Below, piece by piece: positions 3,341 to 55,789 of a stretch of 64,000 nucleotides of DNA. The notes beneath the pieces are model-generated. The model was not told the DNA's origin, did not search any database, and was given only the letters and a program-made list of their open reading frames with translations. The position numbers and the translations under genes are program-made. Origin of the DNA: Patescibacteria group bacterium (GTDB lineage Bacteria; Patescibacteriota; Minisyncoccia; Moranbacterales; UBA2206); contig JAKLIG010000001.1 of assembly GCA_022709735.1 (NCBI GenBank), positions 192,586-256,585 of the forward strand. The letters run 5' to 3'. The number at the start of each line of letters is the position of its first letter. Position 1 is the stretch's first letter.

Positions 3341-4502
3341 AATAGGGATTATTATTTCTACTTCCGAGGGGTGGATGGGAGGAATTAATTATATGAAAAA
3401 TCTGCTTCGAGCAGCTTCTTCTATCGGCGGTAAAAAAATTGAATTTGTTCTGTTTTTTGGGGAAAAGTCAGATAGGGATGTGGTCGCCTCTTTTGAAGGT
3501 TTCGGGGAAATCATAAGAACTCCAATTTTGGACAATTCTAACGCGCAAGGAGTTTTTAATATTTTATCTTGGAGGTTTTTTGGCGGAAGTTTCATGATGA
3601 ATCAAGAATTTGAAAAAGCTAAAATTGACATTGTTTCCCACTCTCGTATTTTTTTGAAAAATAGAAAATATAAAATAATAAATTGGATCCCGGATTTTCA
3701 GCATTTCCATATGCCAAAGATGTTTTCTTATGCGGAAAATATGTATAGAAATTATCTTTTCAAGGCTTATGTAAAAAATAGTAATGCAGTAATTTTGAGC
3801 AGTAATGACGCGTTAAATGATTACAAGAAACTTTATCCCAAATATATAGATAAAGCGCATGTTTTGCAATTTGTTTCACAGCCGAACGAAAAAATATATG
3901 GAATAAAAGGCACAAAACAGATTGAAGAAAAATATAAATTTTCTGGAAAATTTTTCTATCTTCCGAACCAATTCTGGAAACATAAAAATCACATGATAGT
4001 GCTGAAAGCTCTGAGCCTGTTAAAAAAAGAAGGAAAAGATATCCTAGTTTTATGTACTGGCCATGCCGGTGATTATCGCAACAAGAATCATTTTGAAAAT
4101 ATTTTGCGGTATGTAAAAGAAAATAATATTGAAAATAATGTGAAATTTCTGGGGCTTATTGATTATCTGGATGTTATGACCCTAATGCGTCACTGCATAT
4201 CGATTATTAATCCATCCTTATTTGAAGGTTGGAGTTCAACTGTTGAAGAAGCCAAAAGCGTCGGTAAAAATATGATTCTTTCAAATTTAAATGTTCACAA
4301 GGAACAAAATCCGCCAAACTCTATTTATTTCGATCCGCACAATGAAAAAGAGCTTGCGGATAAGCTCTGGAAAAAATGGCAGGAAAGTGAAGGCGGTCCG
4401 GATTTTGATCTTGAAGAAATTGCCAGAAAAAATATTGAAACAAGAACTAAAAATTTCGGAAACACATACCAGAACATCGTGTTGAATGTTCTGAAAAAAT
4501 AA
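3333..4502 (+). CDS. Glycosyltransferase, GT4-type (GT-B fold)
   Basis: 389 aa. C-terminal EX7E-type motif FEGWSSTVEEAKSVGKNMILSN, as in GT4 retaining transferases. Confidence 0.7.
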   Translation: MVRIGIIISTSEGWMGGINYMKNLLRAASSIGGKKIEFVLFFGEKSDRDVVASFEGFGEIIRTPILDNSNAQGVFNILSWRFFGGSFMMNQEFEKAKIDIVSHSRIFLKNRKYKIINWIPDFQHFHMPKMFSYAENMYRNYLFKAYVKNSNAVILSSNDALNDYKKLYPKYIDKAHVLQFVSQPNEKIYGIKGTKQIEEKYKFSGKFFYLPNQFWKHKNHMIVLKALSLLKKEGKDILVLCTGHAGDYRNKNHFENILRYVKENNIENNVKFLGLIDYLDVMTLMRHCISIINPSLFEGWSSTVEEAKSVGKNMILSNLNVHKEQNPPNSIYFDPHNEKELADKLWKKWQESEGGPDFDLEEIARKNIETRTKNFGNTYQNIVLNVLKK

Positions 4503-10566: not shown

Positions 10567-11609
10567 TATAATTTTTTATAGATTCCTTCTTTTTTTAAAT
10601 CTGCTTCGAGCATTATTTTTACAAGTTTTTTGAAAGTTGTTTTTGGTTTCCAATCGAGCTTTTTTCTGGCTTTTGTCGGATCACCGAGAAGAACATCAAC
10701 TTCAGCTGGTCTAAAATAGCGGTGATCTATACGGATAAGTACCTTTTTTGTTTTTTTATCATAACCAACTTCCTTTAGTCCCTCTCCCTTCCAAGCAAAA
10801 TCAATACCAACTAGCTTCATACATTCTTCAATAAATTCTCGAACGCTATGATTTTCACCAGTAGCTAAAATGTAGTCTTCTGGATATTTTTGCTGAAGTA
10901 TTTTCCACATCCCTTCCACATAATCTTTGGCATAGCCCCAATCGCGTTTAGCGTCAAGATTTCCAAGATAAATGCAATTATGTTTTCCTGAAATTATGCG
11001 AGCGAGTCCCCGCGTTATTTTTCGAGTAACAAATGTTTCTCCGCGTCTAGGAGATTCATGATTGAAAAGAATTCCATTACAGGCAAACATATTGTAGCTT
11101 TCTCGATAGTTAACTGTTATCCAATAGGCATAAAGTTTGGCAACGCCATAGGGCGAGCGAGGATAGAAAGGGGTAGTTTCCTTTTGTGGTATTTCCTGAA
11201 CTTTTCCATAAAGTTCACTACTAGAGGCTTGATAGAATTTTGTTTTTATATGAGAATCTTTAATGGCATCAAGAATGCGAAGTGTTCCTATGCCATCAAC
11301 ATCAGCGGTATATTCCGGAATATCAAAACTTACTCGCACATGACTCTGCGCGCCGAGGTGATATATTTCATGAGGTTTAATTTTTTCCAATAGGCGCGTG
11401 ATATTACTGCTGTCAGAAAGATCTCCATGATGCAGAAAAAAATTGATTCCGTTAATTTTAGGATTGGAATGCAAATGATCAATCCTCCCGGTATTAAATG
11501 AACTCGAGCGTCTTATGATGCCATGAACTTCATAACCTTTTTTCAAAAGAAATTCTGCCAAATATGAACCGTCTTGCCCGGTGATTCCGGTGATAAGTGC
11601 TTTTTTCAT
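10566..11609 (-). CDS. gmd: GDP-mannose 4,6-dehydratase
   Basis: 347 aa. [46 protein letters not shown] is the canonical Gmd N-terminus. [10 protein letters not shown] (YxxxK). Confidence 0.92.
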
Positions 11610-11962
11610 TCTTTTTCATTTAAGTTAGTTATTTTTTTAAGTGCATCTTTTCTGGTCAAAATTGACATACTTTGTTCGAGTCTTTCGATTGCATTTAAAA
11701 GTTTGAAAATAATAAGAAAAATCAAGAGAAAGCCAACTAAAATTACTGCGTTGATATTGCCTTCAATTCCAATAAATTTTGCTAAGCTTATGCTGATTTT
11801 TGGATAAATTACAATTGCAATCATTCCGCCCCAAACAAAAATCCTTGCTAAGAGTTTTGAAAATGTTTGTTGTTTTTGTTTTTTAAAGAAACGATCAAAA
11901 CCCTGATAAATCATCAGGGCAGAAATAATGACAATGGCAATTTGGTAGAGATGAATGTTCAT
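11606..11962 (-). CDS. DUF2304-family small membrane protein (typical partner of GT2 genes)
   Basis: 118 aa, 3 TM helices. C-terminal amphipathic [21 protein letters not shown] overlap with gmd. Confidence 0.6.
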
Positions 11963-11969
11963 AAAAATA

Positions 11970-12058
11970 AGTTAAAAAGTCTATCAAGTCCGTAAAGTCT
12001 ATAAAGTTAAGAAAAAAGATTCTCTCGGACTTTATGGACTTTCAAACTTTAAGGACTT
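11970..12058. repeat. Palindromic 'aagtc(c)gtaaagt' repeat element ('empty' copy of the inverted repeats that flank the four-helix-bundle gene)
   Basis: atcaagtccgtaaagtctataaagtt .. 17-nt spacer .. cggactttatggactttcaaactttaaggactt. The right half is the reverse complement of the left-half motif family. Same word family as 15788-15833 and 16182-16240. Confidence 0.6.
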
Positions 12059-12743
12059 AGCTAATTATATTCCAAATCATTTTATATAGAGTTTTTAAGC
12101 CGTTTAGAAAACTTTGTTTTTGAACTTTTCCCATTGAATACTCAGTATAGCGCACAGTAATGGGAATCTCCTTATATTTTAGTTTATATTTTTTGATTTC
12201 GCGGATAACCTCACTGTCATATTCATATCTGTCAGAACGAGTGTTAATAACTTTGACAGCGTGTCTGGAATAAGCGCGGAAACCGGACTGGGAATCAGTG
12301 ACCCAAAGACCATAAAAATACCAAGTAAAAAAATTTCCAATTTTATTGGCTAAAATTTTATGGTATGGCATGCCTTTTGAATTAAGCAATCTTGTGCCAA
12401 GGACTACATCAAACTTATCAAATTCAATTGGTTTGGTCAATTTAGAGATATCAGTTGGATCATGCTGGCCGTCGCCGTCCATTGTAACAATAATATCTGC
12501 GTCTAAAATTTTGGCGGCTTCAATGCCAGTTTTGGTGGCAGCTCCCTTTCCACGGTTCAAGCGATGACGAAAAACTGAATTCCCAAGAATTTCTTGGGCT
12601 TTTGAAAAAGTGTTGTCAGTGCTTCCATCATCAATCACAATTATATTTTCATAACCGGATTTTTTAATATCACCAATAACTTCCTGGATAATTTTTTCTT
12701 CGTTCAAAGCCGGTATGACGATGAAGATTTTTTTGTGTTCCAT
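12057..12743 (-). CDS. Glycosyltransferase family 2, DPM1-like soluble type (polyprenyl-phosphate sugar synthase-like)
   Basis: 228 aa. IFIVIPALNEEKIIQEVIGDIKKSGYENIIVIDDGSTDNT, MDGDGQHDP (DxD). Confidence 0.85.
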   Translation of the reverse strand: MEHKKIFIVIPALNEEKIIQEVIGDIKKSGYENIIVIDDGSTDNTFSKAQEILGNSVFRHRLNRGKGAATKTGIEAAKILDADIIVTMDGDGQHDPTDISKLTKPIEFDKFDVVLGTRLLNSKGMPYHKILANKIGNFFTWYFYGLWVTDSQSGFRAYSRHAVKVINTRSDRYEYDSEVIREIKKYKLKYKEIPITVRYTEYSMGKVQKQSFLNGLKTLYKMIWNIIS

Positions 12744-14858: not shown

Positions 14859-15794
14859 ATGAATGGAAAACTGGATTTGTCAGTTATAGTTCCTCTATAC
14901 AATGAAGAGGGGAATGTTCGCGAGCTTCATCGAAAGATAAAAGAAGCTTGCGAAAAATTAGGAAGAAGTTTTGAAATTATTTTTATCGACGACGGTTCTC
15001 GCGATAAAACAGTGGAAAATTGCGCTGGTCTTTCTCCGTTAAAGCTTATTACCTTTCGTCGCAATTTCGGCCAGACGGCTGCTTTTGATGCCGGAGTGAA
15101 AAATTCGCTCGGAGAAATTATTGTGATGATGGACGGTGATTTGCAAAATGATCCAGCTGACATTTCTCTTCTTCTTGCAGAAATGGAAAAAGGTTTTGAC
15201 ATTATCGCTGGTTGGAGATGGCAAAGAAAAGATTCATTTAGCAAGAAGTTTTTTTCGCGAGGAGCTAATCTGCTTCGAAAAATTTTAATTCAAGACAAAA
15301 TTCATGACAGCGGATGTTCACTCAAGGCTTATAAACGCGAATGCTTTCATGATTTGGATCTTTTTGGCGAAATGCACCGATTTATTCCGGCTCTTTTGGA
15401 GCTTCAGGGGTATAAAGTCGGGGAAGTGAAAGTTTCGCATTATCCCAGGGTTCATGGAGTGACAAAATATAATTGGAAAAGAGCAATCAAGGGTTTTGTT
15501 GATATGATTTCTATTTGGTTTTGGCGAAAATATGCCAATCGTCCTCTGCATCTTTTTGGCGGATTAGGAATTGTTTTTTCAATAGTTGGATTTATTATTT
15601 TGGCTTGGATGGCAGTGGAAAAAATTATGGGCGGATCAATCGCGGAAAAAATCTGGCCACTTATCGGCGTGTTCTTCATAATGATTGGTATCCAACTTTT
15701 CGTTTTTGGACTTCTGGCAGATATTCTAATTAAAAATTATTACAAAAGCCAAAATCGAATGAATTATTCAATAAAAGAAATAAAAGAGTCGTAA
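14859..15794 (+). CDS. Polyprenyl-phosphate glycosyltransferase, GT2 (ArnC/GtrB/DPM synthase type, 2 C-terminal TM)
   Basis: 311 aa. LSVIVPLYNEEGNVRELHRKI...IIFIDDGSRDKT...GQTAAFDAGV...MMDGDLQNDP. Two C-terminal hydrophobic helices. Confidence 0.88.
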   Translation: MNGKLDLSVIVPLYNEEGNVRELHRKIKEACEKLGRSFEIIFIDDGSRDKTVENCAGLSPLKLITFRRNFGQTAAFDAGVKNSLGEIIVMMDGDLQNDPADISLLLAEMEKGFDIIAGWRWQRKDSFSKKFFSRGANLLRKILIQDKIHDSGCSLKAYKRECFHDLDLFGEMHRFIPALLELQGYKVGEVKVSHYPRVHGVTKYNWKRAIKGFVDMISIWFWRKYANRPLHLFGGLGIVFSIVGFIILAWMAVEKIMGGSIAEKIWPLIGVFFIMIGIQLFVFGLLADILIKNYYKSQNRMNYSIKEIKES

Positions 15795-15833
15795 AGTCTG
15801 TCGAGTCCATCAAGTCATCAAGTCGTAAAGTTT
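15788..15833. repeat. Left inverted-repeat arm flanking the four-helix-bundle gene
   Basis: gtcgtaaagtctgtcgagtccatcaagtcatcaagtcgtaaagttt. Internal direct repeat gtcgtaaagt x2. Matches the left half of the 11970-12058 element and the reverse complement of 16182-16240. Confidence 0.55.
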
Positions 15834-16181
15834 ATGGTGATACAAAAATTTGAAGATATAATTGCTTGGCAAAAATCAAAACAAATAACTATATCAATTT
15901 ACAGAGAGTTTAAATTTAACAAAGATTTTTCTTTTAAAGATCAAATTCAAAGAGCATCTGTTTCCATAATGAATAATATAGCCGAAGGTTTTGAAAGAAG
16001 AGGAGACAAGGAATTAAAAAAGTTTTTATTTATAGTTAAGGGATCCTGCGGAGAAGTAAGATCTATGCTATATTTAGCGTTGGAGTTAGAATATATTGAT
16101 AAAATTAAGTTCAATATTTTTTATAATGATTCCTTGGAAATTTCAAAGATGCTTTCAGGGTTTATTAAAAAATTAAATTAA
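15834..16181 (+). CDS. Four-helix-bundle protein ('23S rRNA intervening-sequence protein' family, TIGR02436-like)
   Basis: 115 aa. IIAWQKSKQITISIYREFKF...DQIQRASVSIMNNIAEGFERRG.KE...FLFIVKGSCGEVRSMLYLALEL is the hallmark sequence of this family. Confidence 0.85.
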   Translation: MVIQKFEDIIAWQKSKQITISIYREFKFNKDFSFKDQIQRASVSIMNNIAEGFERRGDKELKKFLFIVKGSCGEVRSMLYLALELEYIDKIKFNIFYNDSLEISKMLSGFIKKLN

Positions 16182-16240
16182 GTCAAGATCTGTAACTAAA
16201 CTTTATAAACTTTACAGACTTTAAAGACTTTTAACTACGC
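16182..16240. repeat. Right inverted-repeat arm flanking the four-helix-bundle gene
   Basis: Reverse complement reads ...aagtctttaaagtctgtaaagtttataaagtttag..., sharing 'taaagtctgt' and 'gtaaagtttat' words with the left arm. Confidence 0.55.
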
Positions 16241-16241
16241 T

Positions 16242-17579
16242 ATGCGCATTGCAATCATTGGAACGGGCTATGTTGGTTCAGTGACGGGGGCGTGTTTTGC
16301 GGAAATGGGCAACATTGTAATCTGCGTGGACAACAACACGGATAAAATTGCCAAGTTTAACGAAGGGAAAGCGCCTCTTCACGAAAAAGGACTGGACGAA
16401 TTAATTGAAAAAAATTTGAAAAATAAAACCCTTTTTTATACGACTGATTTTGAAAAAGCAGTCAAGGAAAGCGATATAATTTTTATCGCTGTTGGTACTC
16501 CGCCTAATGAAGATGGAAGCGCTGATCTTAGCCATGTCATAACAGTAGCGCGTTCTGTTGGTGAAAAAATGGATCACCCCTTGGTTATTGTCGACAAGTC
16601 TACTGTGCCTGTCGGAACCGCTGAAATGGTCAAGGAAACTATTGCTGAAGAATTGAAGAAGCGAGGAGAGAAAATAGAGTTTTATGTTGTAAGTAACCCG
16701 GAATTTCTGGCTCAAGGAACGGCAGTCAAGGATTTTATGGAGCCTAGCCGAGTTGTGGTGGGCGCAGATAGCGAGAAAGTCCTAGAGACCATGAAAGAGC
16801 TGTACGCGCCTTTTATGCGCCGCGAGGGCCGTTTTTTTGCGATGGATCCCAAAACTGCCGAAATGGTGAAGTATGCTTCTAATTGTTTTTTAGCCGCTAA
16901 AATTTCGGTTAATAATGAATTGGCGAATATTTGCTCCCGCATTGGAGCTGATTTCGATTTGGTTCGAAAAGCGATGGGTGCTGATCCTCGAATTGGCGAA
17001 CCTTTTATGTATGCCGGTCCGGGGTTCGGTGGCAGTTGTTTTCCAAAAGATGTAAGAGCGCTTATAAAAATTGCCAAGGATAGCGATTATAAAGCGGAAA
17101 TGTTTTTGCAAACACTGGATACCAATGAAAAGCAAAAACATGTTTTAGCTGATATGCTTTTAGCGCAACTCGGAGAAGATTTGAGTGGAAAAAATTTTTG
17201 CGTTTGGGGATTAGCTTTCAAGGCTGGTACGGATGATATGCGGGAATCTTCCGCGCTCACAATTATTAATAAATTAATTTCAAAAGGTGCGCTTATTAAA
17301 GCTTATGATCCGGAAGCAATGCAAATGGCAAAGACGCCGGAATATTTTGGTGATAATTCAGCGATAAATTATTTTGAAAATAAATATGATGCTTTGGACG
17401 ACAGTGACGCATTGCTCATCATTACAGAATGGAAAGATTTTCGCACCCCGGATTTTTCGGAAATAAAAAAGCGATTGAAACAACCATTGATTTTTGACGG
17501 CCGTCTTTTGTATGATCCCAAAAAAATGCAGGAACTTGGTTTTAAATATCATTCAATCGGACGATCGTCCAAAAAATAA
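16242..17579 (+). CDS. ugd: UDP-glucose 6-dehydrogenase
   Basis: 445 aa. MRIAIIGTGYVGSVTGACFAEMGN.V.CVD, GFGGSCFPKDV (catalytic Cys region). The gene is visibly GC-richer than its neighbours. Confidence 0.92.
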   Translation: MRIAIIGTGYVGSVTGACFAEMGNIVICVDNNTDKIAKFNEGKAPLHEKGLDELIEKNLKNKTLFYTTDFEKAVKESDIIFIAVGTPPNEDGSADLSHVITVARSVGEKMDHPLVIVDKSTVPVGTAEMVKETIAEELKKRGEKIEFYVVSNPEFLAQGTAVKDFMEPSRVVVGADSEKVLETMKELYAPFMRREGRFFAMDPKTAEMVKYASNCFLAAKISVNNELANICSRIGADFDLVRKAMGADPRIGEPFMYAGPGFGGSCFPKDVRALIKIAKDSDYKAEMFLQTLDTNEKQKHVLADMLLAQLGEDLSGKNFCVWGLAFKAGTDDMRESSALTIINKLISKGALIKAYDPEAMQMAKTPEYFGDNSAINYFENKYDALDDSDALLIITEWKDFRTPDFSEIKKRLKQPLIFDGRLLYDPKKMQELGFKYHSIGRSSKK

Positions 17580-54489: not shown

Positions 54490-55683
54490 ATGCATAGGAT
54501 ATATTTAGATAATGCGGCGACTACGCCGGTGGATAAAAAAGTATTTGAGGAGATGAAACCGTATTTTAGTGATAATTTTGGCAATGCGTCATCTATACAT
54601 AATTTTGGAAGAAACGCTAGCGAGGCAGTGGAAAAAGCGAGAAAACAAGTCGCAGATTTTTTTGGCGCTGATTCAGGCGAAATCATTTTTACCAGCGGAG
54701 CAACAGAATCAAATAACTTAGCCATAAAGGGAATTGTCAAAGCGCATTATAAAAAAGAAAAAGCTAAACCGCATATAATCACGACTGCTTTTGAGCATCA
54801 TTGCGTGCTGAATGCTGTAAAAAATTTAGAAAAAGAAAATTTAATCGAGGCAACTTATATAAAACCTGAAAGAGACGGGGTTATTAATATTCTTGATATA
54901 AAAAAGGCGATCAGACCAAATACAATTTTAGTTTCTGTTATGTATGTGAACAATGAAATCGGAACAGTCCAGCCAATAAAAGGAATAAGCCAAATGCTAA
55001 AAAAATATAATTCAAATATAATTTTTCATACGGACGCGACGCAAGCGGTGAATTATTTTGATTGCAATGTCAAAAAATTAGGCGTGGATTTGATGAGTAT
55101 GTCGGCGCATAAAATTTATGGGCCAAAGGGAGTAGGGGCTTTGTATGTCAAAAAAGGCCTTAATATAGCCAAAATACAGGATGGCGGAGAACAGGAAAGG
55201 GGTTTGCGAGCTGGAACGCTGAATGTGCCGGGAATTGTGGGACTTGGAGTGGCTATGGCAGGAATTAGGAATTATGAATCAGGAATTAGGAAAATAAAAT
55301 CGCTTCGCGATTATTTAATAAAAAGAGTTTTGAGAGAAATTCCGAATTCAAAATTAAATGGATCAAAAATAAAACGATCACCTAATAATGTTAATTTTAG
55401 TTTTCCAGGCGTAGAAGGGGAAAGTCTGATTATGATGCTGGATGCTGATGGAATTTCTGCTTCAACCGGTTCGGCTTGTTCGTCAGGAACACTTGAGCCG
55501 TCGCATGTTCTTCTTTCGATAGGCTCGAAGCCCGAAGAAGCGCATAGTTCGCTCCGTATAACTTTGGGCAAATATACTACAAAAAAAGAAATTGATTATA
55601 CTATAGGCGTACTTAAAGAATCTATAAATAAATTAAGAAAAATTTCAGGCAATGTTTTAAGTGATTATTATAAGCTTAAATAA
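54490..55683 (+). CDS. iscS: Cysteine desulfurase (IscS/NifS class)
   Basis: 397 aa. IYLDNAATTPVD, SAHKIYGPKGVGALYV (PLP-Lys), SSGSACSSG (active-site Cys loop). Confidence 0.92.
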   Translation: MHRIYLDNAATTPVDKKVFEEMKPYFSDNFGNASSIHNFGRNASEAVEKARKQVADFFGADSGEIIFTSGATESNNLAIKGIVKAHYKKEKAKPHIITTAFEHHCVLNAVKNLEKENLIEATYIKPERDGVINILDIKKAIRPNTILVSVMYVNNEIGTVQPIKGISQMLKKYNSNIIFHTDATQAVNYFDCNVKKLGVDLMSMSAHKIYGPKGVGALYVKKGLNIAKIQDGGEQERGLRAGTLNVPGIVGLGVAMAGIRNYESGIRKIKSLRDYLIKRVLREIPNSKLNGSKIKRSPNNVNFSFPGVEGESLIMMLDADGISASTGSACSSGTLEPSHVLLSIGSKPEEAHSSLRITLGKYTTKKEIDYTIGVLKESINKLRKISGNVLSDYYKLK

Positions 55684-55789
55684 TTTTTCAATTATCAATT
55701 TACAATTTTCAATCAATTTTCAATTATTAAAATTTAAAATTAATACTTCGCTGAAAATTGATAATTGTAAATTGAAAATTATATTATAT

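Follow-up and report, generated by a model that had tools for sequence, protein, structure and literature searches.

How does a small four-helix-bundle gene come to lie between two host genes, framed on either side by repeats that recur in the same DNA with no such gene between them? The gene in question belongs to a 64,000-nucleotide stretch, hereafter the window, from a Patescibacteria group bacterium (Moranbacterales; assembly GCA_022709735.1, contig JAKLIG010000001.1), with a G+C content of 33.7%. An earlier note on this DNA had read the gene as the cargo of a small element resembling a miniature inverted-repeat transposable element (MITE), present in filled and empty states. We find a cassette: a gene for a protein of 115–130 amino acids (aa) set between inward-facing tandem arrays of a single 7–9-nt word, which here is AAAGTY. 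The element is an S23p element of the intervening-sequence (IVS) type, placed between protein-coding genes, and the class to which it belongs is broader, carrying GxxExxY genes as well. On balance we favour the reading that the cassette belongs to a widespread family: very small, intercistronic elements that have inward-facing word arrays and no promoter or transposase of their own.

The cassette and its gene-free copy

The cassette fills the space between its neighbours. Its arms and cargo gene occupy the whole gap from the stop codon of a GT2 glycosyltransferase gene to the ATG of the UDP-glucose 6-dehydrogenase gene (ugd), in the same orientation as both, and its termini read 5'-AGTC ... 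AACT-3' (Table 1). Each left arm overlaps, through its first unit, the stop codon of the gene ahead of it; the GT2 C-terminal GAGTCATAA is also found at empty junctions, for example at locus L095 (comparison loci carry L numbers throughout). The 115-aa product matches PF05635 (23S_rRNA_IVP; E 2.8e-32) and TIGR02436 ('four helix bundle protein'; E 2.2e-31), and further PDB 2GSC (E 4e-9) and the PHROG entry 'Avd protein of DGR' (diversity-generating retroelement; E 1e-4). Among its relatives, structures exist only for 2GSC and 2RLD, pentamers from structural genomics.

The gene had been described as flanked by arms built from a few named words, the right arm being the reverse complement of the left-arm motif family. 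All of the words are present and bracket the PF05635 gene, AGTCGTAAAGT is found twice, and GTAAAGTTTAT and ATAAACTTTAC are 100% complementary. The arms are inverted, as described, but they are not unique repeats; each is a tandem array of 7–9-nt units. In the minimum-free-energy fold of the element the two arms pair with one another, at a duplex energy of −36.9 kcal/mol compared with −25 for unrelated flanks.

The same arms occur a second time with no gene between them. This copy (11970–12059), an open reading frame (ORF)-less form of the arms of the cassette, sits in a gap of 94 nt that separates the stop codon of a 228-aa GT2 gene from the ATG of a DUF2304 gene, both genes lying on the minus strand. 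Its predicted fold has an energy of −28.9 kcal/mol (z = −5.5). Read on the minus strand, in the direction of the host genes, its units align one by one with those of the right arm at 16197–16236 (36/42 bases; score 52 against a shuffle maximum of 32), and the back-to-back arrangement with a 17-nt separation that the earlier note had reported for this gap is borne out, with 5 AAGT and 4 ACTT units. Across the 64 kb, AAGTCNNNNAAGTC has 4 matches against 0.03 expected, and chains of at least three AAGT/ACTT words at 8–10-nt spacing form the four arms only (0.32 in shuffles).

The gene-free copy is not a decaying excision scar. It is identical at 87 of 93 positions, loop included, to a hairpin at locus L183, despite the divergence of the flanking GT2 genes (79.6% DNA identity, and 57.6% at third codon positions). 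Two alternatives had been raised for it, a scar or a solo element; the scar falls, and what stands is the ORF-less form. By the comparison with L183 the hairpin is either strongly constrained or recently exchanged. The adjacent DUF2304 gene (11606–11962, minus strand) is started later in public gene calls, which gives 102 aa; its 113–118-aa relatives span the longer 118-aa reading, with the ATG 7 nt past the hairpin.

Table 1. Features of the filled cassette and of the ORF-less copy, in window coordinates
Feature	Position	Strand	Remarks
Host gene upstream: GT2 glycosyltransferase, 311 aa	14859..15794	+	Final codons and TAA stop (GAGTCGTAA) merge into the first repeat unit
Left arm AGTCGTAAAGTCTGTCGAGTCCATCAAGTCATCAAGTCGTAAAGTTT	15787..15833	+	About 5 tandem 8–9-nt units, core AAGT(C/T); outer terminus AGTC; abuts the cargo ATG
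Cargo gene: Avd-like four-helix-bundle protein, 115 aa, pI 9.3	15834..16181	+	PF05635 / TIGR02436
Inner spacer GTCAAGATCTGTAAC, cargo stop codon to right array	16182..16196	+	Sequence reading
Right arm AAACTTTATAAACTTTACAGACTTTAAAGACTTTTAACT	16197..16236	+	4 units ACTTT(A/T)NNN, the reverse complement of the left-arm words; outer terminus TTTTAACT, 5 nt before the ugd ATG
Host gene downstream: UDP-glucose 6-dehydrogenase (ugd)	16242..17579	+	ORF and profile match
ORF-less copy, upstream arm in the host-gene sense, TAAGTCCTTAAAGTTTGAAAGTCCATAAAGTCCG	12026..12059	-	First unit includes the stop codon of the 228-aa GT2; 4 ACTT units on the plus strand
ORF-less copy, 17-nt spacer (loop)	12009..12025	-	Small inner stem in the predicted fold; identical in the orthologous L183 hairpin
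ORF-less copy, downstream arm AACTTTATAGACTTTACGGACTTGATAGACTTTTTAACT	11970..12008	-	7 nt before the DUF2304 ATG; 5 AAGT units on the plus strand

Cassettes among close relatives and across phyla

Relatives differ in what they hold at the same junction. We compared 80 metagenome loci with orthologues of the 311-aa GT2 (64–89% identity), which ugd follows in most. The junction is empty, with 2–31 nt and no repeat, in L129 (which reads 'TAA ac ATG'), L128, L095, L099, L103, L092, L146, L124 and L098; it holds an ORF-less AAAGT hairpin in L086 (GT2 83%), L132 and L147, and an AAAGT cassette with a gene of the same subfamily (4HB-A) in the window, L081/82, L083, L035 and L145. In L085 (GT2 88%), L090, L125 and L130 the place is taken by a gene of a second subfamily, 4HB-B, between CATGAAR / YTTCATG arrays; these proteins are 32–36% identical to the window protein (TIGR02436 E 3e-28; bAvd-like PF22296 E 2e-9). 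Four further loci (L105, L121, L122 and L118) carry a GxxExxY gene with GCNAAT / TACGAAT arrays and their complements, the product having a PD-(D/E)XK fold (TIGR04256 E 3e-27; PF13366 E 1e-27) and weak similarity to Cas4. ORF-less or one-armed arrays of these other words are found in L084, L087–L091 and L140. On the GT2 tree the states are scattered at the tips, as in (window,(L086,(L085,L084))) and (L130,L145).

The junction between GT2 and DUF2304 is just as variable. It is empty in L180 (GT2 88%; 'TAA aattaaaaaa ATG', 10 nt), holds the solo AAAGT hairpin in the window and in L183, and has a one-directional AAAGT array in L081. In L182 (901–1500; GCA_049303905.1, Moraniibacteriota) it is filled by a 122-aa PF05635 gene of a third subfamily, 4HB-C, between TTTTCAAY / RTTGAAAA arrays. 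Because the same two junctions are empty, solo, filled or differently filled among relatives, cassettes are gained, lost and replaced at fixed gene junctions, and the filled and empty states proposed for this element are found at both sites of the window. That we are dealing with a cassette family that turns over is very likely.

Some of these junctions carry traces of more than one array, or arrays that reach into coding sequence. At 3421–3510 of L089 the left-hand array is of CATGAAR and the right-hand one of ATTCGTA, with no gene between them, and the junction looks like the remnants of two different cassette families at one site. The N-terminus of the 4HB-B proteins (MEHKT / MEHGT) is encoded by CATGGAACAT array units in L090 and L130. 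In L085 and L090 the final GT2 codons are CATGAAGCATAA / CATGAAACCTAA, endings from which it follows that the array gives GT2 a new C-terminus and stop codon.

Spread by homing is one way to read such variable occupancy. The cargo protein would mark or cut cassette-less junctions, recombination would copy the cassette in, and the arrays would protect or define the occupied site. Close relatives do hold different small genes at one junction between conserved genes, the GxxExxY proteins have a PD-(D/E)XK nuclease fold (the PF13366 match and Cas4 similarity given above), and the model expects no target-site duplication. The four-helix bundle, however, lacks a nuclease motif, and the relatives known for it are cofactors (Avd); many unrelated junctions hold cassettes without sharing a target sequence; and ORF-less hairpins are not predicted. 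We consider homing highly improbable.

The cassette in the window (15787–16236) is old at its site. Its protein is 82%, 78%, 70% and 65% identical to those of the copies at the orthologous site, and the GT2 in L081 and L083 is 77% identical. Synonymous sites of the cargo gene are saturated (proportion of synonymous differences, pS, 0.64–0.76) and the ratio of nonsynonymous to synonymous divergence (dN/dS) is 0.08–0.15; the protein is therefore maintained by purifying selection. A resident copy can thus persist for long under such selection. At the same site the number of left-arm units changes fast (5, ~10, 5 and 11) and the word stays constant.

The architecture extends well beyond this lineage. 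Homologues were scanned in one genome per species, yielding 80 loci with encoded proteins 58–75% identical, from Patescibacteria, Bacteroidota, Spirochaetota, Omnitrophota, Neomarinimicrobiota and other phyla. AAGT words number 373 in 7.8 kb of 100-nt upstream flanks (4.8 per 100 nt; background 0.49), and ACTT words number 307 in 7.9 kb of 100-nt downstream flanks (3.9 per 100 nt; background 0.47). At 70 of the 80 loci there are at least two upstream and at least two downstream units in the expected orientation. Unit spacing is 7 nt (96 cases), 8 nt (41) or 9 nt (105), and the unit types are YATAAAGTY and GAAAGTY. The arms are true inverted repeats (median match 34.5 nt, 87% identity, 76 loci), their family-wide outer ends are 5'-AGTY ... 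RACTA-3', and the right end lies 3–10 nt ahead of the next start codon. The arms fill the flanking gaps (median 55 nt upstream and 47 nt downstream), and the cargo gene is co-directional with its upstream neighbour at 70 of 73 loci and with its downstream neighbour at 68 of 76.

A search that presupposed no word gave the same picture. We looked for any 5-mer chained at least three times at 7–10-nt spacing, with a reverse-complement chain within 700 nt, in the loci and the window, and found 64 paired arrays against 0 in shuffles. The inner distances between paired arrays are bimodal, with 11 at 13–103 nt and 45 at 335–420 nt; forms with and without an ORF are therefore discrete states. The ORF-less hairpins typically lie in the gap between two co-directional genes. 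The genes enclosed by paired arrays at the loci inspected are PF05635 or GxxExxY genes only.

Arms and gene duplicate together. Two copies in one metagenome-assembled genome (L011 and L034) resemble each other only over the span from AGTCGAAAGT to ...ACTTTTAACTAATTTATAT / ...GGACTTTTAACTAATTTATAT and are unrelated outside; L046a and L046b, 1.6 kb apart, are likewise alike only from arm end to arm end. On all contigs with the identical protein the arms are identical as well. A defined inverted-repeat frame for the scattered four-helix-bundle genes, suggested on the strength of the window, thus holds at the homologous loci.

A few 4HB-A loci depart from the usual word or setting. The flanks of L063 carry a different one, AGTACTAAGTTCCCAGTCCCCAGT, which contains CCCCAGT, the unit of the cyanobacterial short tandemly repeated repetitive (STRR) sequence STRR1, and L060 has CACTGTCCCCTGAG repeats on its downstream side only. 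At L052 (2111–2213) the gap between a NusB-NUDIX gene and rnc, the gene for RNase III, holds an ORF-less AAAGT hairpin; the placement recalls the autoregulation of RNase III through a hairpin in its own leader, and coincidence is possible.

The simplest view of all would be that the arrays are slippage-born repeats in AT-rich intergenic DNA, their association with genes being a side effect of shared tolerance. Words that are oriented and reverse-complement paired around a gene at most homologous loci, constant across phyla and saturated divergence, and never paired in shuffles are not what slippage would leave. The fast change in unit number between orthologous copies does fit it, as does the over-representation of heptamer repeats in several bacterial groups (PMC4692102, PMC4679880). 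We strongly disfavour slippage and give it very little chance.

Cargo, words and a possible mechanism

Each type of cargo has its own word. Counted per 100 nt of flank, the 83 4HB-A genes have 4.98 AAGT/ACTT, 0.13 CATG and 0.15 GCNAAT-type words; the five 4HB-B genes have 0.25, 2.75 and 0.38; the seven GxxExxY genes have 0.09, 0.18 and 5.27; and the background is 0.46, 0.23 and 0.26. The 4HB-B group takes in an L150 copy at another locus, and the GxxExxY group takes in L173, between atpD and atpC, and an L172 junction. A further GxxExxY copy (P0137) lies between a NiFe-hydrogenase gene and hypA. The cargo lineages each retain their own word across phyla and saturated synonymous divergence. Since the repeat word differs from one cargo lineage to the next, passive carriage of the gene by a generic vehicle, as the earlier note had supposed, is improbable.

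Cassettes also turn up in unusual places and with other words. In L173 (1156–1650; GCA_900206355.1) a GxxExxY cassette with ATGCCAAT / ATGCGAAT arrays lies between the genes for ATP synthase beta and epsilon, which shows that cassettes are tolerated inside essential operons. Distant members of the family have GGGAAAA / TTTTCCC arrays on a plasmid of Nostoc sp. ATCC 53789 and TCAAGGTT / AACCTTGA arrays in Riemerella anatipestifer. In Anabaena sp. 90 (L169; plasmid pANA02, NC_019429.1, 44265–44633) a four-helix-bundle gene with AGGTGAC / GTCACCT heptamers lies between cas6 and cas4 of a type I-D CRISPR-Cas operon, and its downstream array falls within the annotated 5' part of cas4. The window itself has a second intercistronic array hairpin, at 55684–55782, between a cysteine desulfurase-like gene (54490..55683) and a NifU-like gene (ATG 55790). 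Its left side reads TTTTCAAT TATCAAT TTACAAT TTTCAAT and its right side GAAAATTGATAATTGTAAATTGAAAATT, and the word matches the TTTTCAAY arrays around the 4HB-C genes of L182 and L150. By this likeness it probably represents a third cassette family in its ORF-less state.

How might a cassette live between the genes of its host? We propose that read-through of the host operon would transcribe it, because co-orientation is fixed, promoter-like sites are absent and the arms abut the neighbouring stop and start codons. By pairing, the arms would form a stem of about 35 bp with the gene in the loop that it closes, as in ORF-bearing 23S rRNA IVSs, and RNase III, by analogy with those, would cut the stem and render the insertion harmless to its neighbours. 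This combination of read-through expression and an IVS-like stem is for us close to an even call, leaning slightly to the doubtful side. The arrays would in addition be read in a sequence-specific manner for propagation or self-control, most plausibly by the multimeric cargo protein; we infer such reading because each cargo lineage holds to its word over saturated divergence, and because the word is DNA-symmetric and differs between lineages. The candidate readers are PF05635, a basic Avd-like pentamer, and GxxExxY, a nuclease-fold protein. That the cargo protein reads its own arrays is a tentative proposal, and a rather doubtful one.

Several results weigh against parts of this scheme. For the RNA stem, the sense duplex is no more stable than the antisense (−37.1 against −38.4 kcal/mol, p = 0.12), and the arms show no G·U signature: transitions that would give G·U in the sense RNA number 81 against 107 in the antisense, and transversions 258. 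The arrays around the four-helix-bundle gene of L012 (2817–2998 and 3355–3488, with 25 and 18 AAAGT units) run in the same direction and cannot pair, and nor can the AAAGT arrays that flank DUF2304 in the same direction in L081 (2830–2890 and 3273–3344). For the protein reader, PF05635 has no known binding or cleavage activity outside DGRs and its PDB entries are from structural genomics only; unit numbers run from 3 to 25 per array, with no fixed match to a pentamer; and the association of cargo and word is equally expected from simple linkage of arm and gene within one element lineage. For mobility, insertion as a DNA event is deduced from genome comparison alone. We saw neither a target-site duplication nor a conserved target sequence at the L011/L034 and L046a/b borders or between filled and empty junctions, where the spacers are too divergent for a base-exact insertion point. 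There is no transposase, integrase or reverse transcriptase within 5 kb of the cassette.

The neighbourhoods of the inspected loci contain no transposase either, a result that does not extend to whole genomes, which were not searched. Phage relatives were absent from an IMG/VR scan and a GenBank phage tblastn, and PADLOC had no match for the four-helix-bundle protein.

The earlier comparison with MITEs therefore holds for the inverted arms and for little else, since no target-site duplication was seen and no transposase partner found. In its fuller form, a classical non-autonomous element with terminal inverted repeats (MITE-like or like REPINs, hairpin-forming pairs of repetitive extragenic palindromic (REP) sequences), a transposase encoded elsewhere, such as a REP-associated tyrosine transposase (RAYT) or another IS200-type Y1 enzyme, would act on the arrays and the gene would be passive. 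The terminal inverted arms with the defined ends AGTY...RACT would be expected of such an element, and so would ORF-less two-arm copies; the layout also resembles that of RAYT genes flanked by REPs. A host-encoded enzyme, however, would not explain why word families track the cargo lineage across phyla, nor would it explain why two unrelated cargo folds share one architecture. Together with the missing duplication and transposase, this makes the explanation rather improbable.

What, then, are the arms? A locus pairs best with itself: duplex energy is −37 kcal/mol with a locus's own arms, −30 with arms from another locus and −25 with unrelated sequence. RNA pairing alone was rejected as an explanation, neither the duplex energies nor the G·U-compatible transitions being biased to the sense strand. 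Terminators and promoters were rejected too, a consensus scan having found no such site in or next to the arms. The arms are AT-rich, have no T-run after them and are followed by a start codon. Rfam, searched to E values of 1, gave nothing on the arms; the only match with E <0.1 was Bacilli-1 (26.8 bits against a 55.6-bit cut-off), within the start of the ORF. No universal 16S or 23S rRNA motif adjoins a cassette; the 23S gene at L009 is on the opposite strand, about 1 kb off, and does not enclose the four-helix-bundle gene.

Because the word is kept despite saturation and there is no G·U bias, we take the arms to be sequence-specific, DNA-symmetric repeats and not generic terminators. The terminator alternative, for which the earlier note had asked that the repeats be folded, envisages AT-rich terminator or attenuator hairpins, or a chance resemblance. 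AT-rich sequence that is able to fold is all that speaks for it. The words are 10-fold enriched and orientation-specific, the hairpins lie inside operons and directly ahead of start codons, a terminator-like site and a T-run are lacking, and 4 matches were observed where chance predicts 0.03–0.32. We regard this alternative as already refuted.

A further possibility is that the hairpins only serve the host as RNA, as mRNA stabilisers or processing sites of a REP- or STRR-like kind, in which small genes happen to survive; DNA would not move, and presence and absence would reflect loss. Against this, the arms lack a G·U or compensatory signature and transversions dominate; differing words and cargo genes swap at one junction among close relatives; paralogous copies share arms and gene with sharp borders; and many relatives have no hairpin at the same junction. 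What speaks for it is that hairpins fill gaps between co-directional genes, that one solo hairpin lies directly upstream of the RNase III gene (L052), and that the solo hairpin and its loop are far better conserved than the synonymous sites of their neighbours. We think a purely host-serving role unlikely.

Known relatives and wider meaning

The closest known system is the IVS of 23S rRNA. ORF-bearing IVSs have reportedly been called selfish since 1993. Those of Leptospira and Coxiella burnetii share with the cassette a PF05635 protein, complementary termini that form a stem and short tandem repeats in the upstream arm. They lie in helix 25 or 45 of 23S rRNA, whereas the cassette lies between protein-coding genes (GT2 and ugd); unlike theirs, its gene is under purifying selection and not decaying, and it has ORF-less copies and an alternative cargo (GxxExxY). 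In Coxiella the S23p ORF is preceded by 3–4 tandem GACAGAT heptamers of variable number, the arms form a 28-bp stem that is cut by RNase III, and ORF-bearing 23S IVSs are regarded as selfish elements without a transposase (PMC4990558).

The arrays themselves resemble the intergenic heptamer repeats of several bacteria: the STRR of cyanobacteria, GGGAATC of Xanthomonas (70–75 convergent pairs), and TAACTGA of Beggiatoaceae, cyanobacteria and Bacteroidetes, whose function is unknown (PMC4692102, PMC4679880). Both are tandem intergenic words of the 7-nt class, often before start codons and often in inverted pairs, with a length that varies among relatives; cassette arrays thus have the ~7-nt tandem intergenic units and the variable copy number by which STRR and heptamer repeats are recognised. 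The cassette arrays differ in being tied to a gene family, and neither of the two heptamer papers mentions four-helix-bundle or S23p genes. Nevertheless, repeat #15 of Xanthomonas campestris ATCC 33913 (622956–622983; GGGAATCGGGAGTGGAGAATCGGGAATC, a GGGAATC array), listed in the supplement of PMC4692102, lies at a distance of 6 nt from bccP (XCC0517) and extends over the start of XCC0516. The product of XCC0516 is the S23p four-helix bundle whose crystal structure, a pentamer, is PDB 2GSC; the authors do not comment on the overlap. Taken with the Nostoc, Riemerella and Anabaena arrays, this sequence overlap suggests a link between heptamer repeats and four-helix-bundle genes.

Other systems share one trait or another. 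REP/REPIN–RAYT systems likewise have a single small gene between inverted repeat copies, and repeats that also occur as gene-less intergenic hairpin doublets; the cassette gene, in contrast, encodes a four-helix bundle and not a Y1 HUH (IS200-like) transposase, is multi-copy with several subfamilies, and has arms that are word arrays, not one palindrome. MITEs are small and intergenic too, with terminal inverted arms and gene-less two-arm copies, but the cassette has tandem-array arms and, in its filled form, a conserved gene, and it lacks an observed target-site duplication and a transposase partner. The free-standing homing endonuclease genes of T-even phages (seg and mob) are likewise small genes between conserved genes, with variable occupancy of one junction and no target duplication; the cassettes differ in having repeat arms and ORF-less forms, in the absence of a nuclease fold from the four-helix bundle, and in being chromosomal and spread across phyla, not phage-borne.

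PF05635 is the Avd family (PMC10053308), and Avd, the accessory protein of DGRs, shares the homologous fold and the pentameric, basic four-helix bundle. A DGR is nevertheless not what we see: the neighbours of the cassette are glycosyltransferases, Ugd and a metallophosphatase, and no reverse transcriptase, template repeat or variable repeat lies near it. Integron cassettes are promoter-less, co-oriented small genes separated by imperfect hairpins (attC), as here, but our cassettes have arms on both sides of the gene, no integrase in the loci and housekeeping-operon neighbours such as atpD and atpC; the words are unrelated to attC core sites, as judged without a formal scan for the core motif. 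Intrinsic terminators have a G+C-rich stem and a T-run, which the arms lack. In the literature on PF05635, S23p, TIGR02436, GxxExxY and STRR, with subscription journals outside its coverage, we found no report of array-flanked cassettes outside rRNA.

A broader unification can be imagined. PF05635 and GxxExxY genes with their word arrays would form a class of transposase-less mobile mini-cassettes, in which a small multimeric protein recognises the tandem words beside its own gene and ORF-less hairpins are non-autonomous derivatives; the 23S IVSs, the heptamer repeats (STRR and the GGGAATC pairs) and the scattered, multi-copy four-helix-bundle genes of Patescibacteria, Bacteroidota and cyanobacteria would then all belong to a single system. 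We regard this as possible, though somewhat unlikely.

The cassettes bear on three puzzles. PF05635 'four helix bundle / S23p' and GxxExxY genes rank with the commonest small genes of Patescibacteria, Bacteroidota and cyanobacteria that still lack an explanation; ORF-bearing rRNA IVSs have no known mechanism; and the heptamer repeats (STRR, GGGAATC and TAACTGA) have no accepted function. For annotation, cassettes split operons such as that of atpD and atpC without harm, and arrays can overwrite the 3' ends of host genes. All three puzzles gain a common, testable anatomy: a gene with its cognate arrays, defined ends, filled, ORF-less and empty states, and a code that relates cargo to word. It can be tested in hosts that grow in culture, namely Nostoc, Anabaena, Riemerella and Xanthomonas.

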